In this document: positions 29,353 to 44,231 of the stretch, piece by piece | Layout: every line of letters starts with the position of its first letter | Position numbering within the stretch: the first letter of the stretch is position 1 | From: Candidatus Parcubacteria bacterium | GTDB taxonomy: Bacteria; Patescibacteriota; Minisyncoccia; Phycocordibacterales; UBA918 | Length of the DNA stretch: 64,000 nucleotides | Direction: 5' to 3' | Assembly (NCBI GenBank): GCA_021731405.1 | Contig: JAKFXN010000001.1 | Location: 29,857-93,856, forward strand | The notes under the pieces: model-generated | Database searches by the model: none | What the model was told of the DNA's origin: nothing | The model's input: the letters and a program-made list of their open reading frames with translations, nothing else | Program-made: the position numbers and the translations under genes

Positions 29353-30336
29353 CTAGAAGAGTTTTTTGGCAGCAGCGATAATCGCATTTGTGCCCATGCC
29401 GTAGTGTTCAATGAGTTCATCTGGTTCACCCGATTGTCCAAACTGATCATCTACCCCCACTCGGACAATTTTGATTGGATGTACTTCACTGAGATACTCA
29501 GCTACTGCTCCACCAAGTCCACCTGCCTTTTGATGCTCCTCCACGGTTACGATACCGCTATGTTCTTTAGCGAGCGCTACAAGGGCCTTGGTATCAAGCG
29601 GCTTGATAGTTGGCATATGGAGGACTGTTGTTCCTATTCCATCAGCCTCAAGGGCTTGTGCGGCCTTGAGCGCATTAAACAGGAGTGTACCTGTCACTAC
29701 AATAGCGATAGCTGAGGAGTGGGCTTCATTTCGAGTATAAAATACTTCTGCTTTACCAATTTCAAATGGTGATTCAGCCGTGGTTACTACTGGTGTATTA
29801 CTTCTACCAATCCGAATATAAACTGGCCCTTCGTACTTAGCGGCCGCTAGTGTTGCCTTCCTAGCTTCATGTACATCAGCTGGCGCAATTACCACCATGT
29901 TTGGTACCACCCGCATGAGAGCTATGTCTTCTATTGCTTGGTGAGTTGCTCCATCCGGACCCACCGATACGCCGGCGTGTGCACCAATCACTTTTACATT
30001 ACTATCGTTATACGCAATAGTGGTACGAATCTGCTCCCAGTTACGCCCAGGAGAAAACATTGCGTATGAAGCGATGAAAGGAACTTTTCCCATGGCCGCC
30101 ATACCAGAAGCTACCGACGCCATATTTTGTTCAGTGATACCAACTTGGATAAAGCGATCGGGAAAGGCTTCTGCAAACGGTAGCGTGCGTGTAGATTCCG
30201 TTAAGTCCGCAGCCAAAGCAACGACATTGTTGTCTCGTTTTGCTGCTTCAAGAAGCCCTTCTCCGTAGCCATTACGGCTCGGAAGGCTAACCATCTCTTT
30301 AGTATCAAAATTTTTATCGAGGTGAGGTACTAACAT
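29353..30336 (-). CDS. Transketolase, C-terminal (pyrimidine-binding) subunit
   Basis: A 327-aa homolog of the C-terminal half of transketolase (split tkt). Confidence 0.9.
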   Translation of the reverse strand: MLVPHLDKNFDTKEMVSLPSRNGYGEGLLEAAKRDNNVVALAADLTESTRTLPFAEAFPDRFIQVGITEQNMASVASGMAAMGKVPFIASYAMFSPGRNWEQIRTTIAYNDSNVKVIGAHAGVSVGPDGATHQAIEDIALMRVVPNMVVIAPADVHEARKATLAAAKYEGPVYIRIGRSNTPVVTTAESPFEIGKAEVFYTRNEAHSSAIAIVVTGTLLFNALKAAQALEADGIGTTVLHMPTIKPLDTKALVALAKEHSGIVTVEEHQKAGGLGGAVAEYLSEVHPIKIVRVGVDDQFGQSGEPDELIEHYGMGTNAIIAAAKKLF

Positions 30337-30342
30337 ACAGAT

Positions 30343-31239
30343 TTACGAAATATCTTCTTTAGCGATAAGTCCAGCCAGTGTTCGCAATTTTTGTAGCGCC
30401 ACTTCAGCCTGCTTATCTTTTGGTACTCGATCCTCAGGACCTTTCCCTGGTGGATTGCCGTGCCATCTAAAATCTCGTTCAAACACGTCTACACCCTTTG
30501 AAGCAATGGTATGTGCAATGATGAGAGACGGCTGACTATAGACTGCCTGTGCTTTGAGAATAGCGTCATTGAGAGCGCGCATATTGTGACCGTCCACTTC
30601 TTGTACATCAAAATTAAATGCTTCAAATTTTTCAGCTAGTGGTTCAAGCGGCATCACGTCTTTGGTGTAGCCATCAATCTGAATACCGTTTCTATCAACA
30701 ATCACAATTAGGTTATGAAGTTTCTCCTTCCCTGCCTGCAGTGCCGCCTCCCAAATCTGCCCCTCATTTAATTCTCCATCACCAGTAAGACAATAGATGT
30801 ACTTAGACGAATACGGATTATTAATTCGTTCTGCGAGCGCCATCCCAACTGCTTGCGAAAGACCAGAACCAAGTGGTCCAGAGCTAGTCTCAAGACCTGG
30901 TAGGGATTTGCGATGTGGGTGTCCTTGCAAACGTGAACCGAATTTTCTAAGTGTTAGTAATTCTTCAACATCAAAATACCCAGCGTGTGCGAGAGTGGCA
31001 TACAGCACAGGACAGACATGTCCATGTGAAAGCACGAGTCTGTCTCTGTCTTCCCAGAGTGGATTCTTTGGATTGTGCTGCAAAACTTTAAAATACAGGA
31101 GCGTCAAAATATCAGCCATTCCTAGTGGGCCGGCAGTATGTCCGCTCCCAGCCGCTACCAACATCTCAACAATACTCTGCCTTATTTGGTTGGCCTTAAG
31201 TTCCAGATGTTGAACTTCTTTTGAAGTGAGGTAATGCAT
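30343..31239 (-). CDS. Transketolase, N-terminal (TPP-binding) subunit
   Basis: TPP-binding motif GDGELNEGQIWEA and GHTAGPLGMADILTLLY. Confidence 0.9.
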   Translation of the reverse strand: MHYLTSKEVQHLELKANQIRQSIVEMLVAAGSGHTAGPLGMADILTLLYFKVLQHNPKNPLWEDRDRLVLSHGHVCPVLYATLAHAGYFDVEELLTLRKFGSRLQGHPHRKSLPGLETSSGPLGSGLSQAVGMALAERINNPYSSKYIYCLTGDGELNEGQIWEAALQAGKEKLHNLIVIVDRNGIQIDGYTKDVMPLEPLAEKFEAFNFDVQEVDGHNMRALNDAILKAQAVYSQPSLIIAHTIASKGVDVFERDFRWHGNPPGKGPEDRVPKDKQAEVALQKLRTLAGLIAKEDIS

Positions 31240-31289
31240 ATATCGCTTTCAGTATAACACCACAAAAAATACCTTGTAGCTCTTGCCTG

Positions 31290-31937
31290 TTAGTTAATGA
31301 GAGATGAGAGCTCTCTGTGTGCTTCTTTGGGATTTGAGGCTCCTGCAATAGCTGAGCCGCAGATAAATCTATCTACTCCGGCTTTGGCTAACCGAGCAAT
31401 AGTTTCTCTATTTACACTTCCATCCACTGACACCAATAAACGACTATTACTTTCCTTGAGTGTTTTGATTCTCTCAAACACGCGCTCATCAAGCGGTTGT
31501 CCTTGCGCACCAATAGTAGCGATACCCATCACCTGCACATAGTCAGAAAACTCGAGATACGGCAAAAGAGTCTCAAGCGGAGTGTCGTTAAGCGCACAAA
31601 CACCTAGTGAAATTTTGGTGCTTTCCGCAAATCTTTTAAACGCGTCAAGTGAAATTGTTTCAATATGAAAAACGAGCATGTCAGCTCCAGCAGCTACCCA
31701 AACATCCGCCGCCTCAAGAGGGTTTTGCACCATCAAATCAACCTCAAGTGTAAAGCCGTCAGTGACAGGCTTTGTTTGTTCAGGATTACCAACTGGGTTA
31801 TACGGCCAAGAAACACTCGAGACAAATACCCCATCCACCACGTCCACATGCACCTCAGGCGAAAAACTAAATCCTGCCAAGGTACGGACAAGATGTGCAG
31901 CTGAAGTAGGAATAATAGCGGGAACAATAGGAATCAT
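31290..31937 (-). CDS. rpe: Ribulose-phosphate 3-epimerase
   Basis: RPE barrel with the HVDVVDGVFV metal-binding region and C-terminal GSAIAG. Confidence 0.8.
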   Translation of the reverse strand: MIPIVPAIIPTSAAHLVRTLAGFSFSPEVHVDVVDGVFVSSVSWPYNPVGNPEQTKPVTDGFTLEVDLMVQNPLEAADVWVAAGADMLVFHIETISLDAFKRFAESTKISLGVCALNDTPLETLLPYLEFSDYVQVMGIATIGAQGQPLDERVFERIKTLKESNSRLLVSVDGSVNRETIARLAKAGVDRFICGSAIAGASNPKEAHRELSSLIN

Positions 31938-32419
31938 AGTGTACGAGCATCACGTGTTAGCTTTTCAATCTTTTGATTGCGGCGCTTATACTTTTCATCA
32001 GTTAAAACTGGGCTCGAGAGCCAGAGCACAATCCCCTCTTTGACTTCTTCAATCGGTACAAAGCGTGCGCCGATAGAAAGTACATTAGCATCATTATGAG
32101 CTCGTGACAGCGCAATGATGTCGAGCTGTCCACCGTAGTAGACCGTTGCCCGAACTTGCTTGTAGCGATTAGCGAGCATCGCTTCCCCCTGTCCTGATCC
32201 TCCAAAAACAATTCCGCGGGCTGTTTCCGGTGAAGCGCTCACAGCGGCAGCTGCCAGACTAATGAAGTCTGGGAAGTCATCTCCCACGTCATACACTTTT
32301 GCGCCATGATCAACAATCTTAAGCCCTTCTTCCTTCAACCATTCCGAGATAATTTCTTTGTACTCAAAACCAGCATGGTCAGAAGCGAGGTGAATAGTTT
32401 TGCTGGTATCAAGCGACAT
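31934..32419 (-). CDS. rpiB: Ribose-5-phosphate isomerase B
   Basis: RpiB/LacAB family (IHLASDHAGFEYKEII...GIVFGGSGQGEAMLANR). Its stop overlaps rpe by 4 bp. Confidence 0.88.
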   Translation of the reverse strand: MSLDTSKTIHLASDHAGFEYKEIISEWLKEEGLKIVDHGAKVYDVGDDFPDFISLAAAAVSASPETARGIVFGGSGQGEAMLANRYKQVRATVYYGGQLDIIALSRAHNDANVLSIGARFVPIEEVKEGIVLWLSSPVLTDEKYKRRNQKIEKLTRDARTL

Positions 32420-32425
32420 AGTGTT

Positions 32426-33451
32426 TTAGCCGACATGCTTGGCAGATTCACGTACATGCTCAACGAGGGTTTGGGTGTAACTTGTTTCGTTGTCGTACCA
32501 AGCGAGTACCTTCACAAGATTTCCATCTACTACCTTGGTAAAAGATAAGTCAGCAATTGAACCGACGCGTGAACCGATAATATCAGTTGAAACAATCTCC
32601 TCACTGGTAACTGCAAAGAGGTGCTTCCATCTTGGTTCTGAGGCAGCTTTCAAAAGCGCGTTGTTTACTTCTTCGACTGTCGTATTTCGACTAGCAATAA
32701 AGGTGACGTCAACAATTGATCCAACTGGCACAGGTACCCGCATTGCGATACCATCAAACTTATCTTTAAGTTCAGGGTGTGCCAGTGTGGTCGCAATAGC
32801 TGCTCCAGTAGTACTTGGTACGATATTAAGTGCCGCAGCTCTACCAGCTCTAAAGTCTTTCTTGCTTGGTCCATCAACCAGTGTCTGCGAAGCGGTGTAG
32901 GCGTGCACTGTATTGAGTACAGCTTTATCAATGCCAATTGCCTCTTTAAGAATTGCGATAAGTGGACTAGTAGCGTTTGTGGTACAAGAGGCATTTGAAG
33001 AAACCTGACAAGTCTTAAGTAAATCATGGTTTACGCCCATCAGCACTGTTGCTCCGGTAATACCGATAGCAGCAGGATCTCCCTTTACCGGAGCTGAGAC
33101 AACCACCCGTTTTGCACCCGCATCAAGGTGCAACTTTGAACCCTCATAACTCACAAAGAAACCAGTGGATTCAACCACGATATCAATCGCCCAGTCGCGC
33201 CATGGAAGTTTGTTTGGTTCTTTCTCTTGAGCAAAAGAGATTTTTTTGCCGCCAACCATGAGGGCTCCGTCAATTACTTCAACCGAAAAAGGTGCTCGCC
33301 CGTAAACAGAATCGTACTCGAGGAGATACGCCAAGTTTGCTAAATCTCCGAGGTCGTTTATAGCAACTACTTCAAAATCAGGGTTGCCATATGCCAACCT
33401 GAAAAAAGTTCTACCGATTCTTCCAAAACCATTAATTGCTACTCGTACCAT
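32426..33451 (-). CDS. gap: Glyceraldehyde-3-phosphate dehydrogenase
   Basis: NAD motif INGFGRIGR and active-site SNASCTTNA. Confidence 0.93.
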   Translation of the reverse strand: MVRVAINGFGRIGRTFFRLAYGNPDFEVVAINDLGDLANLAYLLEYDSVYGRAPFSVEVIDGALMVGGKKISFAQEKEPNKLPWRDWAIDIVVESTGFFVSYEGSKLHLDAGAKRVVVSAPVKGDPAAIGITGATVLMGVNHDLLKTCQVSSNASCTTNATSPLIAILKEAIGIDKAVLNTVHAYTASQTLVDGPSKKDFRAGRAAALNIVPSTTGAAIATTLAHPELKDKFDGIAMRVPVPVGSIVDVTFIASRNTTVEEVNNALLKAASEPRWKHLFAVTSEEIVSTDIIGSRVGSIADLSFTKVVDGNLVKVLAWYDNETSYTQTLVEHVRESAKHVG

Positions 33452-33509: not shown

Positions 33510-35081
33510 CTACCGATTATCCTCAGTCGCTTTTGACCGACGGTACAAAATAAAGAATAAGAGCACAAGCGCCAGAAGAAGTAGAGAAATGGTAGAGAAA
33601 AATGGTCTAACAGCCTCAACTAATTTGTCAGGAAACATCACCTCAGCAACGCTACCTACACTAGGTATAAACATGACTGGCTGACGATAGCGTCCGATAA
33701 CACTTCGTTCGTAATCAAAGATTTCAACTTGAATTCGTGACGGACCACTCGCTTGAAGCGGTGCGATGACTGCCTCATACGCATCTCCAGCTTTATTGAT
33801 ACGAAGTAAAAACGAATAGCTCCGATTTGGGTTAGTTGGGTCTACCAAAGTAACGATAATTGATTTCAAATTATCAGGCAGTGCTTCTTTTTTAATACTA
33901 ATGATAAAAGCTTCGTTTTCTAAAAGCTCAATGTTTTCACTTTTGAAGCTAAAAGTTTTGTCTCCCTGATTAAGGGTAACCGCATCAGTAGAAAAATTGA
34001 AATACGGAAGCTCAATTATGGGTTCTTCGGGTACAACCTCTGGTTCTAAGGGTTCACCGGTCCCGGTCGAAGTTGCTCTTTTGGTAGCTTTTGCTACCGC
34101 ACCAGAAGAAACCGAACCGTCGTTCGAGATAACAAAGGCGGTGTAGTAGAGTGTTGAGTAATTAGAAAACGCGCCACTATCAAGAAACGTTAGTGCGCTA
34201 CCTTCGTACACCACGGCTCCATCATACGGATCAAGTGGGTAACCCAAATGACTACGAACAATCCTAACCACAGCGTTTGGTACCGAAGGTGGAGTTATGT
34301 AGCTTAGACGCACGTCATTTTGCAGTGGAGTAGCAGTAAAGTTCCGTACGTTGGCAGGTGTCAGGTTCTCTCGAGCGATGGTTGTAAACTGACCTGAACG
34401 AAGCTCGAGGACTCGTCCGTTGGCAGCATAGCCAATGAGTTCATAGAGATACGTAGTTCCTGGCTCAAGATCAGTGATGAGCGTCTGTTGTTCTTTGCGG
34501 TAGATATCATTAATGATATATCCCTCGTCAAAACTATTGTTTCTTCCCCAGCGTAGCGCGTACCGTGCTGGCATACTAGTCTCCCACTCAAATAGTGCAC
34601 TGTTGGTGTCGGGTGTTATATCTAGATTGAGTAGTCGAAAAACAAGCGTCCCTGAACTTCCATTTTCGGTAGAGGTTGCCTGGGGAGGAGCGACTGGCTG
34701 CGCTGGCGTAGTTGTAGACAGAGCGTTTGAGGTAGTTGAAATATTATAGAAACTATCAAACGCGTATACTTCATATTCGTATAGTGTTTCAGCCAAGAGT
34801 CCGGTATCAGCAAAAGAAGTGAGTGTAGTTGTAGCAATCGCGAATCCGTCCCGCAAAAGCACGTACCCACCAAGCAAGAGGTTATCGGTAGCCACACTCC
34901 AAACAACATCAATCTGAGTTGCTGCTGTTGGGGTAACTGATAGAAGGGTTGGTGTGGTTGGTGGCTCAAGATCTTCACCGCCTTGTACCGTGATAGTAAA
35001 CTGCGAAGTGGTTGCACCAAAAACTAAGCTTGGAAACAAGACAAAGAAGGCAAAAATAAAGCGTGGGAAGATGTACATCAT
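33510..35081 (-). CDS. Cell-surface protein with fibronectin-III-like repeats, an N-terminal signal peptide and a C-terminal TM anchor
   Basis: 523 aa with Fn3-like segments (PTTPTLLSVTPTAATQIDVVWS; PANVRNFTATPLQNDVRLSYI) and a C-terminal LLLLALVLLFFILYRRSK. Confidence 0.6.
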   Translation of the reverse strand: MMYIFPRFIFAFFVLFPSLVFGATTSQFTITVQGGEDLEPPTTPTLLSVTPTAATQIDVVWSVATDNLLLGGYVLLRDGFAIATTTLTSFADTGLLAETLYEYEVYAFDSFYNISTTSNALSTTTPAQPVAPPQATSTENGSSGTLVFRLLNLDITPDTNSALFEWETSMPARYALRWGRNNSFDEGYIINDIYRKEQQTLITDLEPGTTYLYELIGYAANGRVLELRSGQFTTIARENLTPANVRNFTATPLQNDVRLSYITPPSVPNAVVRIVRSHLGYPLDPYDGAVVYEGSALTFLDSGAFSNYSTLYYTAFVISNDGSVSSGAVAKATKRATSTGTGEPLEPEVVPEEPIIELPYFNFSTDAVTLNQGDKTFSFKSENIELLENEAFIISIKKEALPDNLKSIIVTLVDPTNPNRSYSFLLRINKAGDAYEAVIAPLQASGPSRIQVEIFDYERSVIGRYRQPVMFIPSVGSVAEVMFPDKLVEAVRPFFSTISLLLLALVLLFFILYRRSKATEDNR

Positions 35082-35845
35082 AGTGGAGTAGCCGTCAGTG
35101 TAGTGGTGGCAATATACGTACCAATTATCACTCCAGCTGAACCGCCAATGCCAACTCTAAAATTAAGGGTGGTGGTGGCACCAGCAGGCTGATTGGCTGA
35201 CCCTTGCGCAATAATAATATCGCTTGTAGATAAGCCCTGCCAACACGCAAGGGCGGTATCGAAGCTTCCTACTCCGCACGTACCACCATTGTCTCTAAAC
35301 TCAGCCACAATATCACTTCCTTCAGGTGAAAATCCAAACTGCGCATCAGTGGCTCCTGTCACAAAAGAAAAGTCTGCCGCTGGGTCAACAGTAGAAACAT
35401 AGTCCGCAATAGTATACGGGTCATTTTGCATGGCAGGAGCAGACTCTGCTGCAATAGTAAGTTCGTATCCACTCGGGCTATCGGTAAGCACCACCACGCT
35501 GGTGGAGCCGTTTGAAGTACCCCCTGTCAGTCCACCCAGTGCTGGCAAGAGCGTAACGTCAGCCGCCTCGGTGATACTCAAAAAGACTTCCTGCATTTGC
35601 TGATACCCAGCTCGTAGGCGGTAGTTAGAACTATCCGAATCACCACTTGCCACTTCTCCAGCAGTACTCTCAAGTGAATAATTAGTAGAAGTTGAAAGAC
35701 CACCGCCAAAGTTTATACTGTCGCTCTGTAGTTGATAGGTTGGACTAGTGCGTACTTGCGCTACTGATACAGATAACAGCGATACACAAAGTACCGTTAA
35801 TACGACTGTCTGTAGAAACAATGTGTAGAAAGAACGAAATGACAT
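35078..35845 (-). CDS. Small secreted protein, paralog of 36939..37658; WxL-domain-like but lacking the Trp residues
   Basis: Signal peptide, LTGGTSNGSTSVVV.TDSPSGY, and a C-terminus ...TLNFRVGIGGSAGVIIGTYIATTTLTATPL that resembles WxL C-termini (Y.G.LTW.L.DAP). Confidence 0.5.
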   Translation of the reverse strand: MSFRSFYTLFLQTVVLTVLCVSLLSVSVAQVRTSPTYQLQSDSINFGGGLSTSTNYSLESTAGEVASGDSDSSNYRLRAGYQQMQEVFLSITEAADVTLLPALGGLTGGTSNGSTSVVVLTDSPSGYELTIAAESAPAMQNDPYTIADYVSTVDPAADFSFVTGATDAQFGFSPEGSDIVAEFRDNGGTCGVGSFDTALACWQGLSTSDIIIAQGSANQPAGATTTLNFRVGIGGSAGVIIGTYIATTTLTATPL

Positions 35846-35849
35846 ATGG

Positions 35850-36917
35850 TTAGCCGCGACGCTTGAACTCAAATGTTCTAAAGAAAAATCGTAAAGTAAA
35901 GAGAATAATAAAGATGCCAAGGAAAATACCCCCTACCACTTTCCAAGGTAAGACCCAGAAGGTAAAGCTAAACTCATCAACAATATCATCGTAGCCACGG
36001 TTAATAAGTGCTGTAGCGGTATAACGACCAAACAACAGCTCTCTGTCCCAACTAATATCGCGAGTGCGAAGTGACTTAGGTAACACAAACCAAGGCTCAA
36101 GCTCTACAAAGCCTACCTCCTCACCAAACAAATTGGTAATACGAACTTCACCATATGGGTTCACATGTACCGATCCGGTATTTTCATACAAAATCCGCAT
36201 ATCGATAGGACCTTTCTCAAACCACCATGAGGGACGCGCGAGTGAAAAATCTTTTGTTTCACCCCCCTTCACTACTTCTCCTGGTACTGTAATAAAAAAT
36301 AAGGTTCCGATGCGAGCTACAATCGGCGAACGAGCCGTGCCAGCGCCGCCGTTGTCACCTTCATCTTTGACGGTAGACACCAAAACACCGCCGTAATATC
36401 CGCCTGGCTCAGCGTCAGCTGGAATACTAATAGTTACAGGCACACGAGCCCGTTCCCCTAGATTAAGGGTAAACGAATTTTCTGGAAAACTAATGTAGTC
36501 TTTGATTGTGTGTGGGCCGCGCTCCTCACCCAAAAACACCATTGCTCGAGAAGCATCATTACTTCCTGCAATATCCTCAACCACCAGTTCAAACCTGCGG
36601 CCGTCACTGATGCGGTTTGAAACTGATATTTCGTAGACAACTGTCTGCCCAGGCTTAACTTCAATTTCTGCTCGACCAGGGCCAACCACAAAGTCCCCCT
36701 GATTCACCGTCCCAGAAAGCTTCTCGAGTTTATACCAAGGTGCAGCAGGTGCGGCCTCCTCAGTAGTTGAAGTGGCTTCTGTCTCTACAGACAAAACACT
36801 CTCGTCTTCTAAGACTTGAGTATTTTCTTGTGCAGATACTGCAAGCACTCCTATTGTGAACACAAAGAGTGTGAAGGCAGTTTTATAAGCTAATGTAATA
36901 ACATTTTGTGTAGTCAT
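35850..36917 (-). CDS. Surface protein with DUF916/DUF3324-like (CscC-like) architecture: signal peptide, beta-sandwich region, C-terminal TM plus a basic tail
   Basis: 355 aa. Central segment ISFPENSFTLNLGERARVPVTISIPADAEPGGYYGGVLVS and C-terminal KVVGGIFLGIFIILFTLRFFFRTFEFKRRG. Confidence 0.5.
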   Translation of the reverse strand: MTTQNVITLAYKTAFTLFVFTIGVLAVSAQENTQVLEDESVLSVETEATSTTEEAAPAAPWYKLEKLSGTVNQGDFVVGPGRAEIEVKPGQTVVYEISVSNRISDGRRFELVVEDIAGSNDASRAMVFLGEERGPHTIKDYISFPENSFTLNLGERARVPVTISIPADAEPGGYYGGVLVSTVKDEGDNGGAGTARSPIVARIGTLFFITVPGEVVKGGETKDFSLARPSWWFEKGPIDMRILYENTGSVHVNPYGEVRITNLFGEEVGFVELEPWFVLPKSLRTRDISWDRELLFGRYTATALINRGYDDIVDEFSFTFWVLPWKVVGGIFLGIFIILFTLRFFFRTFEFKRRG

Positions 36918-36938
36918 AGGTATGAGACTACACTACCG

Positions 36939-37658
36939 CTATTGTGGAGCTACCGTCAAGGTTGCGGTTGCAGTGTAGGTGTCGACAACGAGACCTGGAT
37001 TTGGATTATTGGGTACATGAACACGGAAATGAAGGGTTGAAGTAGCACCAGTTACCGCATCTGTATCTCGGTCAATGATTTGGAAGGTGGTCGTCGCTGG
37101 TGTCATCCAACATCGATCAACAGTGTATCCCCCACCAGCATTGCAAATTGTACCGTTATTAAGGAAAGATTGATCGAGGTCAGAGCTATCAGCTGCACTC
37201 ATAGTATAAGCAAAAACAGCGGCTGTACTGGCAGTTGAGAAGAGGAATGATGGCTCAAATGGATTAGTAGTACTACCGGTAGTACTTGCTGGGTAATCGC
37301 GGATAGCGCTACTACCAGTAATCTCTCCTTCCATTGTTTGGAGGGTGCCGTTATCGAAAAAGGCAATGTCCATAGTGTAGCCTGTTGGACTGTTGGTTTG
37401 TACCACTACTGTAGTAGAGCCGTTTGCTGTACCTCCTGTAATACCGTTTAGAGAACCAGAGAGCGTTGTATTATTAGCATCAACAATGAACGATGTTTCA
37501 CCAACAATTTCTTGTGAGATAGTGAATGGACCACTAGTATCCTGTGCCCTACCGACACGAGGCTCCGCAAAGAAATATAAAGCAAAGAGTACTGCCACAA
37601 TAAGGACGGCGGCAATAAATGCTTGCGTGAGTGAAGTTAAATAAAATTTTGTGTTCAT
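36939..37658 (-). CDS. Small secreted protein, paralog of 35078..35845 (WxL-like without Trp)
   Basis: Shared motifs ITGGTANGSTTVVVQTNSPTGY and TSTLHFRVHV...TYTATATLTVAPQ. Confidence 0.5.
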   Translation of the reverse strand: MNTKFYLTSLTQAFIAAVLIVAVLFALYFFAEPRVGRAQDTSGPFTISQEIVGETSFIVDANNTTLSGSLNGITGGTANGSTTVVVQTNSPTGYTMDIAFFDNGTLQTMEGEITGSSAIRDYPASTTGSTTNPFEPSFLFSTASTAAVFAYTMSAADSSDLDQSFLNNGTICNAGGGYTVDRCWMTPATTTFQIIDRDTDAVTGATSTLHFRVHVPNNPNPGLVVDTYTATATLTVAPQ

Positions 37659-37792: not shown

Positions 37793-37858
37793 ATGCAGGC
37801 GCTTAGCCATGATTCGACCCCACAGGGAGAATCTGGCTGTAGCGAGCTGCAAAGTAGA
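37793..37858 (+). repeat. Copy 1 of a duplicated ~65-nt element (core ATGCAGGCGCTTAGCCATGATTCGACCCCACAGGGAGA + ..GCTGCAAAG.AGAA)
   Basis: The 38-nt core is identical to 37985-38022. Lies in the intergenic region downstream of the 2040-aa gene. Confidence 0.7.
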
Positions 37859-37984
37859 AGCTGTAAATCATCAGCCGACTATATTTTGCTTGACCTAATT
37901 TTTAAGGAGTGAAGCGACTAAAAAAATGTGAGGTGAATTGCGGAGCAAGAGAAAATGCCCTGGGGTAGAAATACTCTTGTGGTG

Positions 37985-38051
37985 ATGCAGGCGCTTAGCC
38001 ATGATTCGACCCCACAGGGAGAAAATGATGTATGTGGGCTGCAAAGCAGAA
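37985..38051 (+). repeat. Copy 2 of the duplicated ~65-nt element
   Basis: The core is 38/38 identical to copy 1 and the tail is partly conserved. Confidence 0.7.
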
Positions 38052-38079
38052 ACAAGGAGGCTATAGCCTCCTTGTTTTT
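38051..38079 (+). terminator. Plus-strand intrinsic terminator (AACAAGGAGGCTATAGCCTCCTTGTTTTT)
   Basis: 11-bp perfect stem with the T-run only on the plus side, immediately after repeat copy 2. This implies a short plus-strand transcript. Confidence 0.6.
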
Positions 38080-38108
38080 GGCTAATTTTTCACTTACAAT
38101 TCTAACCT

Positions 38109-41100
38109 TTAAATACCTCCACCGCCGCCAGAGCTACCGCCGCCTGCTTGGTGATACACCCTGACCTCAAGAGCATCTAGACGAATGGTATTGGAAGCTG
38201 GTTGCGCCGATACTCGAAGTCGGAAATTAGCTCCGCTAAACTGAGCTGCTGTCCAAGACCGTCCCCAAAGATCACTCGCACCACCCACAAGGTAGACTAC
38301 GTCAGAACCTGCCATAGTTGGAGTAGCTTTAGCAGTAGTGTATGAGTTACCACTATCCCAAGAGAGTGAGACATCAATTGTTCCAGCTGCCGTACTACCA
38401 GAAGCATCGAGCTTCACCGCAATACCTTGAATAGTATTTCCGTCAGGAACATTGAAGTTAAAGCCATTGTATGACTGACGAAGATTGGTTGAAGCGGCAG
38501 TGGCATAGGTACCATCAGACAAGAGGGCGTTTTCTCCATTAGTCCACTCATTATGACTGTCTCCAGTCGCGTTTGGACGAGCGAAGTCTGGGTCAGCAGC
38601 AATATTTTCTCCGTCTTCTTCCTCGCCAGCGCCCACTCCTCCACCAGTCTCACCTCCCTCAACAACACCTGCTCCTGCTGGTGCAGGATCTCCAATACGG
38701 GCAACATTACCTCCTCCACCTCCGCTACTATTCCTAAAATGTTGGGAAGTATTCACCGTCGTTAAAATGACCGGTGCGTAAACCGAGGTGGCCCCAAGAG
38801 CAGTTAACCCGAGTGCTGGAAGACTGAAGACTACCGAGTCTCCAAGCTGGGTCCCAGTAGTGTCAGCAGTGACCAGGTAATTGACTGACGTAGAGGCAAC
38901 AAAGTTTTGACTGAAGGTCACTGCACCATGTTGTCCATTGAAAGTCAGAATTCCGTCTCCATCAAGAAGGAGGTCTCCTCCATCCAAAACTCCATCGCTA
39001 TCATTGTCACGATAGAGATTGAAGTCGGAAAGATTGCTACTATCAAGACCTTGTACCCCACTAAGAGAGACCACCAGGTCAGTCACCGTTATCACTTCAC
39101 TCTGTCCGACCAGATTGAAGGCAAAGAGCGGAACATCATCTTTGTTTTGAGCACTAAACTCATTTTCTACTTGTCCCGCTGCATGATTTGCAATCGTAAC
39201 ACTGCCAGTAATACGGATTGTTTGTGTATCAAGTGCTGCTGGTTCACCGGCTGTATTACCGTCTGTATGAAGCTCAAAAGCGCTCGTAGTGGTAGAGACA
39301 GCGGCAAAAGATCCGGCCGTTATTCCGTTTACAATAAGCGTATCTGAGGCAGCGAAGTTTTCTGTCACGGTAAGCACCAGAGTTGCTCCGGCTTCTTCAT
39401 AAGATGCTGTAGTTGAAACCTTCCCCGCTGCCGTTCCGCCAAAGGTAAGATTGGTCGTACCGGTATTGAAACGGAAGTTTGAAGTAGTGGTCGCAATACT
39501 GATGCGAATATCATTTGCTGTAGTTATAGACGGACTAACACTCTCGGCAATAACCACTGCTCCGAGTGTGGTTGTGGCCTGCCCAACATAGAAGTGATAC
39601 GGGGCGGCAGAATAAAATTCTATTGCTTCTGCTGGCGTAAACGGCCAATTCACATTGTTGCCACTATCAAGACATCCTATATCACAAACCACAGTAGATA
39701 CATTAACGTTGTTTGAATCTTTTACATCTATGTTTGCTAAAGTTGTAGTAGCTGGATTTACATACCAATATTGACCATTTGTGCTTGAACGTAACAAATG
39801 CCTTTCACTTGAACTCGTTCCGGTAAAATTCCATTCTCCTTCAATAGTGGTAAGGGTACCTGCTCCGAAAGTGGTGGTGGCAGTTACTGTCGCATTCTTT
39901 GTCAGGTCAAAAAATGTCGTTGTTCCATTAAGGGCATGTACAGCACCAAGCAGGATAACTTCGCCCCCATTTGCGTCAAAAGCACCGTTATTAGTAAAGT
40001 CTCCGTTTGTGACCGAAAGCGCGCTTGAGGGTGCTGTAACACTCTTTCCCGCAGCCACTGTGAAACTTGTCGTTGAAGCAGTCGCTGTCAAAGTAACTCC
40101 GCCACCTCGACGAAGCACTGCGTCATCATCACCAACATACAAAGTTCCTCTACTGGTATCTATAGTCATCGCCCCAGTAAAGGTGGTGTCGCTTATAGTC
40201 TGGACCAAAGCCCAGTCAGCAGCAGAGTCACAGGCTGTAGATGTCTCACAACGAAACAAAATTTGTCCAGAACCAAAGCCACCAGCGTACAAAAAACCAT
40301 GACCTGAATCAAATTGGAGTGCGGTTATACCACCTAAAGTATCTCCCACATCCGTATCAAGTCCAGTAATGGTAGTAAAATCACCTGAAGCATTACAATC
40401 ACTGGAGAGTGGGCAGCGATAGATAATATCTGAAGATCCACCCCCGCCAGCGTACAAAACTTGATTGGTTGTATCAATTTCTATTGGAGTAAGATAGTCT
40501 ATTCCAGCATTATTGATCACAAATGAGAAGTCGCCATTTGCGTCACAGCTTGAGGATAGGACGCAGCGATAGATAGCACCAGCCCCACCATACCCGACAG
40601 TCACATACATCACATCGTTTACCTCATCAATTACAACATCACCCGAGTATCCAGAAATGGCAAAGCTTGAGAAATCACCTTGGGCATTACAGTCACTGGA
40701 AAGTGGGCAGCGGTAAAAGACGTTGTAATCACCACCGTATAAAACATTATTTTGTGTATCTATACCGAGGGCATAAAAACCATTTCCGTCTGCGTCATAC
40801 ACTTCACTAAAGTCACCCGAAGCATTACAGTCTGAAGACAAGACACAGCGATAAAGAGCACCTGAAGCAGGACTTCCAACACCAACATACAGAGCACCGT
40901 TTACTTCATCTACTACTATTGAGTAGACAATCTGATGTGTCGTATCATACGCCACTGCAAAGTCTCCACTGGCGTCACAGTTTGTGGTGAGGATACAGCG
41001 ATATAAGATTCCGTTGTCTCCCGAACCCGCATACAAGACGTCATTCGTTTCATCAATTGCAAAGACTCGGAACCATACCTGTCCACTTGCGTAAGCAGTA

Positions 41101-44100
41101 GTAAATGTCTCAGTCCCTACTCCAGAAACTTCAAGGTTTGCAAAAGCTGAAGTCCCAGTCATTGTCCCAGAAGCTACTCCTCCCAACGATGTTAAGAATA
41201 CCGTCCCGTTATTGGCATCAAAAGTTCCGCTATTTACATAATTCCCATTTACGATTAATTCCGCTGGTGCCTCGACAGTACCCTGCGTAATGGTTAAATT
41301 ATTCACTTCGGTGCTGGTTCCGAGGAGTAAGCCCGACCCGCCAACAGTAAGATGATTAAGGGCATTTGCCCCAACTAAGTCTCCCGAAAATTCTGGAGAA
41401 AGTTGGAAAGACATAATCTCACAACCAATAGCTGAGCCAGTGACAGATGAACAAGCGGTAAGACTTCCTTCTTTACCGAGGTAGAGATAATTACCACCAA
41501 CACTTAATGCCCCCATTGCAACCACTCCCGTTGCACCGGTAGGAGAACCGTTTGAGTCACGACCCGCGACATAGATAGGGTTTGTAGAAGAAGCGAGGTT
41601 ATAGACTTGCAGTTCACAACCAACGGCTGAATCTGGAATTTGGGAACAGGTCGTAGCATTATCTTCTTTACCAAGAAAGAGATGCTCATTTTTTATCACG
41701 ACTGAATATACTAACCCGGTAAACGTACCAACAGAACCACCGACGTCACGACCGGCACGATAAATAGGGTTCGTACTTGAAGAAATATCGTACACCTGAA
41801 GTTCGCAGTTATATGCTGCGCCTGCAACTTGAGAACAGGCAGAAGAACCTCCAGCGTTGGCAATATATAAATAATTGCCTGACTTGGCCATGCTTAAAAA
41901 TACATTGCCACTACTTCCTCCAGCATCTCCCTCAGCGTCACGACCGGCACGATAAATAGGGTTTGTACTTGAAGAAATATCGTACACCTGAAGCTCGCAA
42001 CCCGCCGCTGAACCTGGTGTCGGAGAACAAGCTGCAGTGTCACCGCCCGTACTGGCATACAGATAATCCCCATTAACAACTAAACTATAGACACTATTTA
42101 CACCCGAACCTGTTGATGACCCAGTACTATCACGTCCCGCCACATAGACCATATTTGTACTTGAAGAGATATCAAACACCATCAGTTCACAGCCGTCTCC
42201 CGCACCTGACGTTTGCCCGCACGAAGCACTGTTGAGTTCCTTCCCTGCATACAAATAATTACCTGACGCCGCTAAACTTAAGAAAAATAGCTGTGAGTTA
42301 CCATTGAGTGCACCATCATGATCTATTGAGGTAAGGAAGACAGGGTTTGTCGGATCAGTAATATCAAAAGACATCAGTTCACAACCCTGAGCGTTGGTCC
42401 CACTTTGGGTACAAGCGGTATTTACCCCTCCCTTACCAACAAACAAAATGTTGTCTTTAATGGTAAATGAAGAAATAAACTCCGCAAAGTTACCGTCCGC
42501 GGATCCGTCCACATCTCGCCCCGCGACGTAAATCATGTTGGTTGGATCAGAAACATCATACACTTGAATCTCACAGCCGATCGCCGAACCAGGAGTTTGT
42601 GAACAAGGAGTAGCCTCCCCAGCAGTACCAATAAATAAATAGTTGCCGTAGGTGATTGATTTATTGATAGTAACTGCGTCGGTACCTGTTGCTGATCCGT
42701 CCATATCCACCGCTCCAGAAAAACCAACAAGTGCTGTATCTGTATATATCTGTCCACCATTATTATCGAAGGTGCCTCCGTTGTGAAAGCTTCCAACAGT
42801 TAAATTTGTTGGCGCAACAAGACTTGAGCCAGCGCTGATGTAAAGATTTGAAGTTGAAGCAGAAGTAGTAGCAATGCTGTACGATGAAGAATTATCAAAA
42901 TCTAATGTAGAAAAGCTACTAGTTGCTGTCAAAATCCCATCAACCACTCCCGACCCAGTCATGTATACCACACCACCATTAGCATTAAATATTCCTCTAT
43001 TGATGAAATCCCCAGAAGCTTGTATAGATGGTGCTGAAACAAATTCTCCCCTGCTAATCAAAAAATCTCCATTAGAAACAAATTCTTCTCCGTTTAAGAA
43101 ATGAAGAATATCCGCATCAGACACAGTGTCGTAAGTAAAGTTAAGCGGATTTATTTGTACCGTAGATGAAGCACCGTACGCAATCACATGCTCATAGTAA
43201 AGCGGTATATTTCGTACCCCTATCCCCGTACTATACCCACTTACGAACGTAGTGGCGTCATTAGCATCACCATCAAGCCATATTACAAAAGGGGTACCGC
43301 TCGTAGCTGAAGAAACGTCTGCATTTGAAAATTCCCAAGCGCCACTACTATTTGTGGTAGTACTAAAAATACTTGGCGTTGAAGTACCGACCCACATCTT
43401 GATAGTTTTTCCCGAACCAGCGGTCGTTACGCCTGCGTCAGTGTACAATGTACCGGCAAAGTACGGAGACGGGGTTTCGCGGATAGCTAAGTGAATAGCC
43501 GCTGCGTCGTCAGTTGTGGCGTAGGTATAACCAACCGATCGTGCGCCTTGGCCAGCGGTAGTTTCCCGACCGAGCATACTAGCCTGCGTAGCAGCGAGCA
43601 CAATACTCTGCAGCGCAGTTGTGTTTGCGCCAGCAGTTAGGGCTGTGTTTCTACCAGTATAGGCTCCTACATACCGCATACTATTAGTACCCAAAGAACC
43701 ATCGTCTACTGACTGTTCACTGTACGCTAGGTTGTTTTGGAGTAATACATATCCGGTTGTTTCTGTATTCCCTGCTGCTTGTACAGAAGCTGCATTTGCG
43801 TACATTACCGTTGCATTATTGGTACGTGTTACCTCAATAGTCTGACTCCCCGTTGGGACACTTGACCCAAGAAAGAATGCGGTCACTCGAGCAGGTTCAG
43901 TGGTAGTGTCGATAGCCTCTGACACTTGCGTCATTGTTACTCCACCATAAGTTACTGAAGTAATGTAGTCTGCATTTGCTATTGTAGTCACAAACACGAG
44001 CACACCTTCAGGTGAGCCGGTATCTCCATGTGTCCAACTAAATGAAGTGGAGGAAGCGTTACCGCTTGTACCAGTATGACTTTCTGAAGAAGTACTGTGG

Positions 44101-44231
44101 GACACCGCCGCTAAAGCACTTGGTGCAAAGAGAACAAAATACGCAAAAGTAAAAAATAGAACCAGAAGAAAACCGAGGCTTTTTTTAGTTGCTTGGTTAG
44201 CGGTTTTGGTTGTGGTGATTGTTGTGTACAT
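38109..44231 (-). CDS. Giant (2040 aa) secreted repeat protein: 8 LVIVD-like beta-propeller repeats (C.L.VYD.S.STNP.Y.AGRD), 8 Cys-pair repeats (YRC.LSSDC.A.GDF), Ig-like regions and a Gly-rich C-terminus
   Basis: Signal peptide LGFLLVLFFTFAYFVLFAPSALA. The periodic repeats were read directly from the translation. Confidence 0.7.
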   Translation of the reverse strand: MYTTITTTKTANQATKKSLGFLLVLFFTFAYFVLFAPSALAAVSHSTSSESHTGTSGNASSTSFSWTHGDTGSPEGVLVFVTTIANADYITSVTYGGVTMTQVSEAIDTTTEPARVTAFFLGSSVPTGSQTIEVTRTNNATVMYANAASVQAAGNTETTGYVLLQNNLAYSEQSVDDGSLGTNSMRYVGAYTGRNTALTAGANTTALQSIVLAATQASMLGRETTAGQGARSVGYTYATTDDAAAIHLAIRETPSPYFAGTLYTDAGVTTAGSGKTIKMWVGTSTPSIFSTTTNSSGAWEFSNADVSSATSGTPFVIWLDGDANDATTFVSGYSTGIGVRNIPLYYEHVIAYGASSTVQINPLNFTYDTVSDADILHFLNGEEFVSNGDFLISRGEFVSAPSIQASGDFINRGIFNANGGVVYMTGSGVVDGILTATSSFSTLDFDNSSSYSIATTSASTSNLYISAGSSLVAPTNLTVGSFHNGGTFDNNGGQIYTDTALVGFSGAVDMDGSATGTDAVTINKSITYGNYLFIGTAGEATPCSQTPGSAIGCEIQVYDVSDPTNMIYVAGRDVDGSADGNFAEFISSFTIKDNILFVGKGGVNTACTQSGTNAQGCELMSFDITDPTNPVFLTSIDHDGALNGNSQLFFLSLAASGNYLYAGKELNSASCGQTSGAGDGCELMVFDISSSTNMVYVAGRDSTGSSTGSGVNSVYSLVVNGDYLYASTGGDTAACSPTPGSAAGCELQVYDISSSTNPIYRAGRDAEGDAGGSSGNVFLSMAKSGNYLYIANAGGSSACSQVAGAAYNCELQVYDISSSTNPIYRAGRDVGGSVGTFTGLVYSVVIKNEHLFLGKEDNATTCSQIPDSAVGCELQVYNLASSTNPIYVAGRDSNGSPTGATGVVAMGALSVGGNYLYLGKEGSLTACSSVTGSAIGCEIMSFQLSPEFSGDLVGANALNHLTVGGSGLLLGTSTEVNNLTITQGTVEAPAELIVNGNYVNSGTFDANNGTVFLTSLGGVASGTMTGTSAFANLEVSGVGTETFTTAYASGQVWFRVFAIDETNDVLYAGSGDNGILYRCILTTNCDASGDFAVAYDTTHQIVYSIVVDEVNGALYVGVGSPASGALYRCVLSSDCNASGDFSEVYDADGNGFYALGIDTQNNVLYGGDYNVFYRCPLSSDCNAQGDFSSFAISGYSGDVVIDEVNDVMYVTVGYGGAGAIYRCVLSSSCDANGDFSFVINNAGIDYLTPIEIDTTNQVLYAGGGGSSDIIYRCPLSSDCNASGDFTTITGLDTDVGDTLGGITALQFDSGHGFLYAGGFGSGQILFRCETSTACDSAADWALVQTISDTTFTGAMTIDTSRGTLYVGDDDAVLRRGGGVTLTATASTTSFTVAAGKSVTAPSSALSVTNGDFTNNGAFDANGGEVILLGAVHALNGTTTFFDLTKNATVTATTTFGAGTLTTIEGEWNFTGTSSSERHLLRSSTNGQYWYVNPATTTLANIDVKDSNNVNVSTVVCDIGCLDSGNNVNWPFTPAEAIEFYSAAPYHFYVGQATTTLGAVVIAESVSPSITTANDIRISIATTTSNFRFNTGTTNLTFGGTAAGKVSTTASYEEAGATLVLTVTENFAASDTLIVNGITAGSFAAVSTTTSAFELHTDGNTAGEPAALDTQTIRITGSVTIANHAAGQVENEFSAQNKDDVPLFAFNLVGQSEVITVTDLVVSLSGVQGLDSSNLSDFNLYRDNDSDGVLDGGDLLLDGDGILTFNGQHGAVTFSQNFVASTSVNYLVTADTTGTQLGDSVVFSLPALGLTALGATSVYAPVILTTVNTSQHFRNSSGGGGGNVARIGDPAPAGAGVVEGGETGGGVGAGEEEDGENIAADPDFARPNATGDSHNEWTNGENALLSDGTYATAASTNLRQSYNGFNFNVPDGNTIQGIAVKLDASGSTAAGTIDVSLSWDSGNSYTTAKATPTMAGSDVVYLVGGASDLWGRSWTAAQFSGANFRLRVSAQPASNTIRLDALEVRVYHQAGGGSSGGGGGI

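Follow-up and report, generated by a model that had tools for sequence, protein, structure and literature searches.

Analysis of a 64-kb stretch of DNA (hereafter the window) from a monoderm bacterium that belongs to the Paceibacteria, a large group within the ultra-small CPR bacteria, identifies four adjacent genes, S1, M, S2 and R, that are conserved across this group and probably constitute a minimal operon for a thin surface fiber or short stalk. Its assembly would rely on donor-strand complementation aided by a chaperone, and the system would be related to the Pam pilus but divergent from it. The middle protein M is a remote homologue of the WxLIP proteins of Firmicutes, while the small proteins that flank it are predicted to have a pilin-like fold. 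This kinship of M is the interesting part, as it joins two surface systems that have previously been treated as unrelated.

A conserved four-gene cassette

The cassette is composed of the following genes:

36939..37658, minus strand: S1, a 239-aa secreted protein, predicted pilin-like subunit (ORF, paralogy, ortholog alignment and public gene call)
35850..36917, minus strand: M, a 355-aa WxLIP/CscA-like protein (profiles, predicted structure and conservation)
35078..35845, minus strand: S2, a 255-aa predicted pilin-like subunit and distant relative of PamT (homologues, AlphaFold model and Foldseek)
33510..35081, minus strand: R, an FN3 protein of 523 aa whose TM helix lies at the C-terminus (Pfam, NCBIfam and ortholog alignment)

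A preliminary description of this DNA had recognized a trio of secreted open reading frames at 35078-37658, and these are real, with S1, M and S2 occupying exactly that interval on the minus strand. The trio does keep its order among relatives, but it is only the core of a larger conserved unit that consists of four genes: S1-M-S2-R occurs in the same order and on one strand in 71 of 80 species-level Paceibacteria loci, and R is found together with the trio in 71-79 of the 80. The genes are separated by 21 nt and then 4 nt, after which the start of R overlaps the stop of S2 by 4 nt. This tight spacing, together with the order retained in 71 of the 80 loci, indicates functional coupling of the four proteins. 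The flanking paralogs had been described as ~240-280 aa in length, which is accurate for S1 (239 aa, also in the public gene call) but not for S2, whose start is ATG 35845 (255 aa) and not TTG 35920 (280 aa), since close homologues are all ~255 aa at 100% coverage and the public gene call is likewise 255 aa. Adjoining the cassette are genes for GAPDH-RpiB-Rpe-transketolase, and GAPDH and pentose-phosphate genes lie directly downstream of it in at least 61 of the 80 loci.

M is a remote homologue of WxLIP

The AlphaFold model of M (mean pLDDT 81.7) contains an N-terminal signal-peptide helix, two beta-sandwich domains (63-184 and 203-322) and a TM helix (325-350) that is followed by a conserved, cytoplasmic basic tail, RTFEFKRRG. 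All of the elements that the preliminary description had assigned to the 355-aa protein are thus present, with its beta-sandwich region resolved into two domains. Conservation is strong at the TM helix, the cytoplasmic tail and a segment spanning 129-147.

The proposal that the middle protein has a DUF916/DUF3324 architecture outside Firmicutes is supported by several lines of evidence. M matches PF06030 at 18.5 bits, which is below the gathering score of 27.3 bits, and 30 of 35 M family members match this model at E<=0.01, also sub-threshold, the best at 2.2e-6; PF11797 (gathering score 28.9 bits) was not matched by M in the Pfam scan. When searched against the PDB, the M family profile detects EfmWxLIP1 at 7e-5, and at 3.5e-8 with a broader profile. 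Comparison with Firmicute WxLIPs by hhalign gives probabilities of 83.6%, 93.8% and 97.2% as profile diversity grows, the latter two with alignments of 256 columns including the TM helix and 222 columns, respectively, that both span both domains. WxLIP structures also top the Foldseek list for M against the PDB, namely 9i25_C (3.7e-11), which is the solved E. faecium WxLIP, and 9i1y (~4e-11). M therefore holds as a remote yet consistent homologue of WxLIP/CscA (DUF916+DUF3324+TM) outside Firmicutes. The label "CscC (DUF916)" used earlier is a misnomer, as DUF916 corresponds to CscA in the Csc nomenclature (PMC1534035).

Ranking after WxLIP are chaperones of the chaperone-usher type (CfaA, Caf1M, SafB, EcpB, FaeE and DraB, with E values of 4e-8 to 1e-5), which reach target-normalized TM-scores of 0.48-0.54. 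Neither M nor its 35 relatives match PF00345/PF02753 (PapD_N/PapD_C), so likeness to these chaperones is structural only, and M matches none of the NCBIfam Pam models. We propose that M, tethered to the membrane, acts as a chaperone or holder of the two small proteins. RbmA, a protein with two FnIII domains, also scores highly (7e-10); this match speaks against the fiber model, since it means that M could be an anchor and not a chaperone.

S1 and S2 are paralogs with a predicted pilin-like fold

S1 and S2 are indeed paralogs, as had been suggested, with 36% identity over 158 aa by BLASTP (E=3e-20) and a probability of 100% (E=2.5e-43) in a profile-profile comparison. S2 consists of a signal peptide (1-29), an N-terminal extension of ~60 residues (30-88) with three S..Y.L-type strand motifs, and a confidently modeled domain (89-254) that carries invariant Cys190/Cys201 and a C-terminal strand, Y.ATTTLTA.PL. 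The extension is the best-conserved segment of the protein, with a mean top-residue frequency of 0.76-0.77 versus 0.66 for the domain (81 species), and it is unstructured in the monomer model (pLDDT <50). Conserved but unstructured in the monomer, it behaves in the model as would be expected of a donor strand. S1 is a paralog that lacks most of this extension. The ortholog alignment indicates a signal peptide and one short conserved N-terminal strand (FTI.Q.I..E.SF), followed by a beta-sandwich with two invariant Cys and an invariant C-terminal strand, YTATATLT; S1 has no Pfam or NCBIfam match.

The preliminary description had regarded the small proteins as possible WxL-domain proteins on the basis of their endings, ...TLTATPL and ...TLTVAPQ. 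These endings are present and lie within the C-terminal strand, which is invariant in both families, but a relationship to WxL domains does not follow. There is no PF13731 match at E<=1 among S1, S2 and 36 S2 relatives, and hhalign against a 32-sequence WxL profile gives probabilities of 0.2-0.5%, equal to negative controls, with the C-terminal likeness reduced to a local alignment of 13 columns that is not significant. Tryptophan W-x-L motifs are absent from the sequences of both proteins, and the solved WxL chain, 9i25_A, is missing from the best structural matches to S2. Nor does anything support attachment of the small proteins to peptidoglycan, as the idea of non-covalent surface anchoring had it. 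What the model of the S2 domain resembles instead are pilins: its best Foldseek matches are PapE (1n12), CfaE, PapA and the PapG pilin domain, and the match lists are dominated by donor-strand pilins (CsuA/B, PapE, FimG, Fim/Pap pilins and TasA-like proteins). A match to pilins had been named beforehand as the outcome that would count against a WxL assignment. A pilin-like fold is thus predicted for S2; fimbrial Pfam families give no sequence-level match for the cassette proteins or their relatives.

These proteins belong to a wider S-type family that forms 1197 clusters when grouped at 50% identity. Extension and domain are also found together as a C-terminal unit in LamG, DUF2341 and FN3 proteins, a placement on large proteins that follows the same logic as in two-domain pilins and adhesins. 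Two-domain S-type relatives exist in other organisms, and the N-terminal domain of one relative weakly matches TafC.

R is a putative membrane anchor

R begins with a signal peptide and a conserved N-terminal F-x-I-x-V strand, as defined by ortholog alignment, and further contains FN3 domains (Pfam fn3 4.8e-6, with an NCBIfam FN3-like stretch), a C-terminal TM helix and a basic tail, YRRSKATEDNR. The fn3 match is the only family above cut-off among the cassette proteins. By analogy with PamR, whose architecture it resembles, we propose that R may serve as membrane anchor or terminator.

Comparison with the Pam pilus

The recently described Pam pilus has been experimentally visualized in Candidatus Mycosynbacter amalyticus (Saccharimonadia, CPR), and its description includes chaperones anchored by TM helices, a single-domain pilin and an FnIII+TM anchor that carries an additional strand at its N-terminus (10.64898/2026.03.03.709456). 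S2 matches NF058579 (CPR-type pilus protein PamT) with 50.6 bits (E=1.6e-13) relative to an equivalog cut-off of 240 bits. The match covers model positions 8-130 of 241, corresponding to the signal peptide, extension and first domain strands of S2, and this model is matched by 36 of 36 S2 relatives, all sub-cut-off. Judged by sequence, S2 is a PamT relative and not an equivalog. PamT has been described as a tip pilin without a linker strand (10.64898/2026.03.03.709456), and for that reason it is a poor fit with S2 as a polymerizing subunit.

Both systems occur in CPR hosts without an outer membrane, lack an usher and have subunits exported by Sec; the truncated Ig-like fold of Pam pilins, which accepts a donated strand, is predicted for the pilin-like S proteins as well. 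M is a candidate counterpart of PamC/PamD, PapD/FimC-like chaperones that end in a TM helix, as its two Ig-like domains and its own TM helix fit in architecture and fold. R is a candidate counterpart of PamR, an RbmA-like FnIII protein that has a TM helix at its C-terminus and one more strand at its N-terminus, given its fn3 match, TM helix and conserved F-x-I-x-V strand. The systems differ in that Pam includes the two-domain pilins PamA/PamB/PamE, with a linker strand between the N-terminal sandwich and the C-terminal domain in PamA/PamB; an HMM scan of all ORFs in the 64-kb window found no pilins of the PamA/PamB type, only the single-domain S1 and S2. Pam also has two chaperone-like genes and the cassette one (M). 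The neighborhoods differ as well, with GAPDH and pentose-phosphate genes beside the cassette and no ATP synthase gene noted among the portions of the window inspected. Finally, the host lineage here, Paceibacteria, is absent from the Pam preprint (10.64898/2026.03.03.709456).

Alternative interpretations

The four proteins could instead form a static surface complex in which strand complementation by M, like that proposed for WxLIP-WxL, keeps S1 and/or S2 permanently at the membrane and R is a separate membrane stalk, yielding an adhesion or docking platform, possibly for giant proteins, without head-to-tail polymerization. WxLIP, the closest relative of M, has been described as a stable partner of WxL (PMC10599100) and 9i25 is a complex of the two; only two small subunits are encoded, and the strong conservation of the M TM helix and tail suggests a role beyond a transient one. 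Such a complex is nevertheless rather unlikely, as the long, highly conserved S2 extension would be superfluous for simple capping by a chaperone, the S fold matches that of polymerizing pilins, S2 is related to a component of a visualized pilus and R has a conserved N-terminal strand of its own.

We consider it still less likely that the cassette is a divergent WxL/Csc cluster, with S1 and S2 being WxL proteins that have lost their tryptophans, bind peptidoglycan non-covalently and are stabilized by M. In Firmicutes, the Csc families are CscA (WxLIP, with DUF916+DUF3324+TM), CscB (small WxL), CscC (large WxL) and CscD (short LPxTG) (PMC1534035, PMC10599100). M is homologous to WxLIP across both domains, DUF916 (PGBD) and DUF3324 (HBD), as well as the TM region, and is like it in length (355 versus 320-380 aa) and in having a signal peptide, a TM helix and a basic tail, although its domains fall below Pfam gathering scores, unlike those of WxLIP proper. 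Both systems are four-family operons of surface proteins only, and the Firmicute order of small protein, WxLIP-like protein and second surface protein is mirrored here, with flanking proteins of ~240 aa that fall within the CscB size range (190-280 aa; PMC1534035). S-type units are also C-terminal in large lectin-domain proteins, as WxL is in CscC (PMC1534035), and the best local hhalign matches, while insignificant, are collinear and fall on the two WxL-motif strands. Furthermore, a parallel strand contributed by WxLIP is predicted to fill out the WxL sandwich (PMC10599100), which is the same principle as proposed for M. However, the definition of a WxL cluster calls for one or more WxLIP and two or more WxL proteins (PF13731, with dual W-x-L motifs) within four genes (Hassan et al. 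2023), and neither sequence nor fold ranking detects a WxL domain in S1 or S2, the motifs that define this domain being absent. None of the four cassette proteins has an LPxTG motif; the putative anchor is a 523-aa TM protein, whereas CscD is a 90-140-aa LPxTG peptide that is usual though not obligatory. The hosts also differ, CPR versus Firmicutes.

Finally, it is very improbable that the cassette encodes secreted proteins of unrelated beta-sandwich type, such as accessories for binding or uptake of carbohydrates that share a transcript with GAPDH-RpiB-Rpe-transketolase, and that any pilin or WxLIP likeness is generic to Ig folds. The position upstream of these genes, the original proposal of sugar acquisition for Csc clusters (PMC1534035) and the many weak structural matches typical of a generic Ig fold are outweighed by an M-WxLIP kinship that rests on sequence profiles as well as fold, by the specific match of S2 to donor-strand filament subunits, by its sequence-based relationship to PamT and by the absence of any catalytic or sugar-binding family at E<=1 (Pfam, NCBIfam) in the cassette proteins.

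Proposed assembly of a fiber

The preferred fiber model draws on chaperone-usher pili (archaic Csu/CupE, P, type 1, CFA/I and Caf1), whose chaperones have the same two-domain geometry as M and whose subunits resemble the S proteins in their Cys pair and in the conservation of their C-terminal strand, and S2 in an N-terminal extension that is a candidate donor strand. Those systems have an usher and an outer membrane; the cassette has neither, with its chaperone-like M tethered to the membrane, and no usher family is matched among the five proteins from the 2040-aa protein upstream of S1 to R (Pfam, NCBIfam). The S2 extension, ~60 residues with three strand motifs, also differs from the one short Nte of chaperone-usher pili. 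TasA/TLP filaments, archaeal bundling pili, cannulae and haloarchaeal Tat-fimbriae are donor-strand filaments too but have no dedicated chaperone, while here a WxLIP-like protein is strictly co-encoded.

Their signal peptides show that all four proteins are exported by Sec. M would remain in the membrane by its C-terminal helix with two Ig-like domains outside, where, as a PapD/Caf1M/CfaA-type fold and homology to WxLIP, itself solved in complex with a WxL protein, suggest, it may lend a strand to the incomplete beta-sandwich of S1 and S2 and so capture them just after export. The N-terminal extension of S2 would then displace the chaperone strand in a neighboring subunit, joining subunits head to tail. 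Polymerization of S2 is a prediction from genes and monomer models; to our knowledge, these organisms have no reported filaments. S1 is probably the distal or cap subunit because it has just a short N-terminal strand, and this is the weakest step of the model. At the other end, by analogy with PamR, the N-terminal strand of R may enter the proximal subunit so that its TM helix ties the structure to the membrane.

Upstream genes and signals

The region upstream of S1 contains the following features:

38109..44231, minus strand: 2040-aa secreted giant protein, directly upstream of S1
38047..38080, minus strand: hairpin with a 15-bp stem, 3' of the 2040-aa gene
37878..37905, minus strand: sigma-70-like promoter match, TTAAAA-16-TATAGT, ~220 nt upstream of the S1 start

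The hairpin is likely a terminator that parts the 2040-aa gene from the S1-M-S2-R transcription unit. The promoter match is a weak candidate for the promoter of this unit, the count of such matches being no higher than shuffle expectation. The 2040-aa protein ends in a conserved domain and a Gly-rich tail, ...DALEVRVYHQAGGGSSGGGGGI, and a pattern for this type of tail places such proteins immediately ahead of S1 in 21 of 62 related loci, with two more by eye, so the link of giant proteins to the cassette is frequent but not universal. We speculate that the 2040-aa protein is cargo or an adhesin of the fiber, and that the variable giant proteins from upstream genes may cooperate with this fiber or be displayed on it. 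In P0259 and P0320, the C-terminal domain of the giant protein occurs in fusion with S-type domains.

Gene organization of the cassette

The trio of small, large and small secreted proteins recognized in the preliminary description is real, with the coordinates, the paralogy of the small proteins and the architecture of the middle protein all confirmed. It is nevertheless incomplete, as the unit includes a fourth gene, which overlaps the last of the three. The cassette thus comprises the following genes:

37658-36939, minus strand: S1, small secreted protein of 239 aa; open reading frame packed tightly with M and S2
36917-35850, minus strand: M, middle protein of 355 aa; open reading frame
35920/35845-35078, minus strand: S2, small secreted paralog of S1; open reading frame with an ATG start at 35845
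35081-33510, minus strand: R, protein of 523 aa with FN3 and TM segments; 4-nt overlap with the S2 stop

S1 and S2 share 36% identity over 158 residues by BLASTP (E=3e-20) and are aligned by profile-profile comparison with a probability of 100% (E=2.5e-43). The 280-aa length initially given to S2 stems from a mechanical open reading frame beginning at a TTG, as approximately 120 close homologs are 251-262 aa long and align over their whole length when the ATG at 35845 is taken as the start. The public gene call for S2 is 255 aa.

M as a relative of the WxLIP/CscA family

In an AlphaFold model of M (mean pLDDT 81.7), a signal-peptide helix leads via a low-complexity linker into two beta-sandwich domains (residues 63-184 and 203-322), after which come the TM helix (325-350) and the basic tail, in agreement with the architecture first proposed. 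The suggested kinship with WxLIP/CscA proteins, the DUF916, DUF3324 and TM component of Firmicute WxL/Csc surface clusters, is borne out by Pfam, profile searches, hhalign and Foldseek, and every line of this sequence and model evidence points to that family. The Pfam WxLIP_PGBD model scores the window M at 18.5 bits (E=0.002), which is below threshold, and matches 30 of 35 M relatives (best 2.2e-6). The solved E. faecium WxLIP1 was matched at 0.003 by the single M sequence, at 7e-5 by a family profile and at 3.5e-8 by a more diverse profile. Alignment by hhalign to six WxLIP proteins from Enterococcus, Lactococcus and Lactiplantibacillus plasmids gave a probability of 83.6% with a shallow M profile (N-terminal domain only), 93.8% over 256 columns once divergent metagenome orthologs were added, now taking in the second domain and the TM helix, and 97.2% (E=3.9e-11, 222 columns, both domains) with a still more diverse profile. 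Foldseek placed the WxLIP structures 9i25_C and 9i1y at the top (~4e-11), followed by RbmA and then by the chaperone-usher chaperones CfaA, Caf1M, SafB, EcpB, FaeE and DraB. Target-normalized TM-scores to M were better for the chaperones, at 0.48-0.54. At the sequence level, M matched neither the PapD families nor any of the NCBIfam Pam models.

The short cytoplasmic tail of M, RTFEFKR (residues 347-355, window 35850-35876; next to TM residues 325-346), has a top-residue frequency of 0.77 across 74 species, equal to that of the best extracellular segments. Such conservation would be surprising in a simple anchor and may reflect a partner inside the cell or contact with lipids. Elsewhere in the window, a 224-aa membrane protein (12130-12804, minus strand) has a sortase-like ...LATC... 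motif and adjoins a 351-aa secreted, Thr/Pro-rich and beta-rich protein (12912-13967, plus strand). In the fiber cassette itself we noticed no LPxTG substrate.

No sign of a WxL domain in the small proteins

The small proteins had been likened to WxL proteins on the basis of their C-termini, an assignment that did not survive profile comparison. The Pfam WxL model gave no match at E<=1 to S1, S2 or any of 36 S2 relatives. Comparisons by hhalign drew on a WxL alignment of 7 sequences, a WxL profile of 32 sequences and, on the S side, a diversified profile (Neff 4.5), with local as well as global alignment. They returned probabilities of 0.2-0.5%, equal to the M-versus-WxL and R-versus-WxL negative controls. 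What stands of the C-terminal resemblance is that a 13-column strand forms the sole local hhalign alignment, but at probabilities of control level. The solved WxL chain 9i25_A, which is present in the PDB set searched, fell outside both top structural lists for S2, and structural matches for S2 were modest. Searching the PDB by sequence with S1, S2 and the S2 profile yielded nothing meaningful, with a match to MlaD reducible to signal peptide and low complexity. A weak match of the S2 extension within a 376-aa ORF (19396-20526) was likewise discarded as Ser/Thr low complexity.

S2 and all 36 of the 36 relatives match the NCBIfam model NF058579, "CPR-type pilus protein PamT" (best 1.6e-13), which describes a component of the Pam pilus of Saccharimonadia. 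This match lies far below the equivalog cut-off and spans the signal peptide, N-terminal extension and first domain strands. An NCBIfam scan of ten diverse S2 relatives returned sub-threshold PamT only, and a scan of genome contigs with the S2 alignment recovered close Paceibacteria orthologs only, with no Mycosynbacter pam operon.

A candidate donor strand and the wider S superfamily

Residues 30-88 of S2 contain three strand-like motifs (S.TYQLQS, TNYSLES and SNYRLRA) and constitute the most conserved part of the protein among 81 species, with a mean top-residue frequency of 0.76-0.77 versus 0.66 for the domain. In the monomer model this same segment has a pLDDT below 50. Conservation paired with poor confidence in an isolated model is the behavior expected of a segment that would fold solely against a partner. 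S1 retains only the last of the three motifs, R exhibits a conserved F-x-I-x-V strand directly after its signal peptide, and the S1 and S2 families have in common a C-terminal strand and a Cys pair, both of them invariant.

The S superfamily comprises 1197 clusters at 50% identity, with 216 at E<=1e-30. The unit of extension plus domain also occurs at the C-terminus of LamG, DUF2341 or FN3 proteins of up to 2187 aa, where the S-type extension serves as the inter-domain linker. These C-terminal units find a parallel in the large WxL (CscC) proteins (PMC1534035), and the linker architecture is that described for PamA and PamB, in which cryo-EM revealed that the linker strand is donated to the next subunit (bioRxiv 10.64898/2026.03.03.709456).

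Fused M-S2 ORFs occur among 16 of the 150 cluster representatives listed (P0250, P0254, P0257, P0258, P0260, P0263, P0265, P0275, P0281, P0287, P0290, P0291, P0296, P0359, P0375 and P0381), in the order M ectodomain, TM, basic loop, S2 signal peptide and S2. They were rejected as Rosetta-stone evidence, as the closest metagenome loci (L092-L095) have separate, overlapping M and S2 genes. These fusions are probably artifacts and may stem from frameshifts, perhaps enriched if, as we assume, representatives favor the longest member; less probably, they are real polyproteins.

Distribution and genomic context

M and S2 each have >1400 homologs (90% clustering), typically 60-80% identical among those listed, which derive from Paceibacteria, Nomurabacteria, Kaiserbacteria and Parcubacteria metagenome-assembled genomes. 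When two peptide patterns taken from S2 were run against species-representative genomes, 132 genomes were identified, and 80 loci were kept. The order S1-M-S2-R on one strand is present in 71 of these 80 loci, and most of the remainder could be explained by contig ends that cut the locus short. Compared with the proteins of the window, those of the 80 loci have a median identity of 58.5% for M, 57.5% for S2, 45% for S1 and 40% for R.

GAPDH follows the cassette in at least 61 of the 80 loci, and is itself followed by RpiB, Rpe and a split transketolase in the four loci with annotated gene calls. This block lies on the same strand as the cassette in the window (29353-33451) and in loci L001 and L009-L011, with only 58 nt separating R from GAPDH in the window. 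The short gap and the synteny suggest that a surface structure and core sugar metabolism are co-transcribed. Many TPA assemblies titled "uncultured Candidatus Saccharibacteria bacterium" (L016, L020, L022, L023, L032 and others) carry the cassette of Paceibacteria-labeled records, and L032, on the contig of L011, has identical flanking GAPDH-pentose phosphate synteny. These titles look generic and are no evidence for occurrence in Saccharimonadia.

Proposed assembly and relationship to known systems

Members of the CPR/Patescibacteria are obligate epibionts, and to our knowledge their host-contact structures are largely unknown. The cassette is a candidate attachment fiber in Paceibacteria, a class outside the discussion of the Pam preprint. 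Sec export of all four proteins is the step that our analysis supports directly, together with the relationships to known families. We infer the subsequent steps from the WxLIP-WxL complex 9i25, from an AlphaFold prediction in which the WxL sandwich is completed by a parallel strand from WxLIP (PMC10599100), from chaperone-usher biology and from the Pam model. Once exported, membrane-tethered M would capture S1 and S2 through strand complementation, its strand would be swapped for the N-terminal extension of the next S2 subunit, and R would terminate and anchor the fiber. The complementing strand may come from the first domain of M, where the conserved segment GP(Y/H)TIKDYISFP (residues 134-145) is a candidate. 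Whether S1 or S2 is the distal subunit is uncertain. The kinship of S2 with PamT is at odds with the simplest assignment. The main alternative to such a polymerizing fiber is a static surface complex of M with the S proteins.

Being devoid of WxL domains, the cassette fails the definition of a WxL cluster. It differs from Pam in falling below the PamT equivalog threshold and in having no PamA/B-type pilins, and it therefore lies outside both families as currently defined. Functionally it would work most like the Pam system, and with the WxL system it has one homologous component in common.

WxL/Csc clusters have been known since 2006 and are tied to virulence in Enterococcus and Listeria and to adhesion in Lactiplantibacillus, and we know of no clear account of their assembly logic. 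The solid homology of M to WxLIP provides a testable hypothesis for these clusters, namely that WxLIP is a tethered chaperone acting via strand complementation. WxL, DUF916 and Paceibacteria are all absent from the Pam preprint (bioRxiv 10.64898/2026.03.03.709456), and searches of the accessible literature for WxL with "donor strand" or "chaperone-usher" returned general reviews only and no paper linking WxL/WxLIP to chaperone-usher-like or Pam assembly. Thus, both the M-WxLIP link and the hypothesis of tethered-chaperone strand complementation in Csc/WxL clusters appear to be new to the literature. A more speculative idea, which we regard as rather unlikely at present, is that Firmicute WxL/Csc clusters and CPR Pam-type fibers are two branches of one ancient monoderm system of chaperone-assisted assembly by strand complementation. 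Under such common ancestry CscA/WxLIP may be a chaperone tethered to the bacterial membrane and not an adhesin inserting into the host membrane, WxL proteins may be strand-accepting subunits, and CscD, a tiny LPxTG protein anchored in the wall, may be the equivalent of the terminator R/PamR with its TM anchor. In that case the Paceibacteria cassette may be a bridging form in which a WxLIP-type chaperone acts on pilin-type subunits.

The region upstream of S1

Features encoded upstream of S1 are as follows:

37793-37829 and 37985-38021, minus strand: perfect 37-nt direct repeat CTCCCTGTGGGGTCGAATCATGGCTAAGCGCCTGCAT, two copies with starts 192 nt apart
38109-38500: C-terminus of a 2040-aa protein, with a conserved ~130-aa domain and glycine tail
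44253-53558, minus strand: 3101-aa secreted protein with long internal repeats (e.g. GAFRDGANASGTLGMILQTTGTSTRWVATSTLG recurring) and an acidic Pro/Glu-rich tail
53565-54350 and 54414-55346, minus strand: paralogous-looking pair with an N-terminal HTH_17-like domain (GYSRDYV.RLARE.KI...IGR.WF) and a TM segment

A strong hairpin 3' of the 2040-aa gene is followed by a 450-nt spacer before S1, and S1-M-S2-R therefore looks like a separate transcription unit. Promoter matches upstream of S1 were not above shuffle expectation, and an Rfam scan of this region found no family. The 37-nt repeat, located in this spacer, is not expected by chance and has no Rfam match. It may have a regulatory role or represent a small repeat element.

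The 2040-aa protein ends in ...NF.LRV...PS.NT..LDALEVRVYHQAGGGGxGGGGxI-COOH. The same domain and Gly-rich tail terminate the gene preceding S1 in 21 of 62 loci by pattern and in two more by eye (including L014, L015, L017, L018, L022 and L025). Representatives P0259 and P0320 carry this domain fused to S-type pilin domains. The ending may serve as a signal for sorting or attachment, joining adhesin-like giant proteins to the fiber. By BLASTP, S2 has no common domain with the 2040-aa protein, the 3101-aa protein or R, and the giants are thus not "large" S-family members in this window.

Gene content 5' of S1 is variable across loci. In some, S1 is preceded by a protein with a Pro/Glu-rich tail resembling that of the 3101-aa protein, and in others by an HTH_17-type membrane protein comparable to that at 53565-54350 (L033, L034, L045, L050, L069 and L070). 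Relatives of the HTH_17-like pair have a C-terminal ...FVVVPV motif. The 3101-aa protein has no Pfam match, and its relative in L010 has a weak Peptidase_S74 match, which recalls the "tail fibre-like protein" reported beside pam operons.
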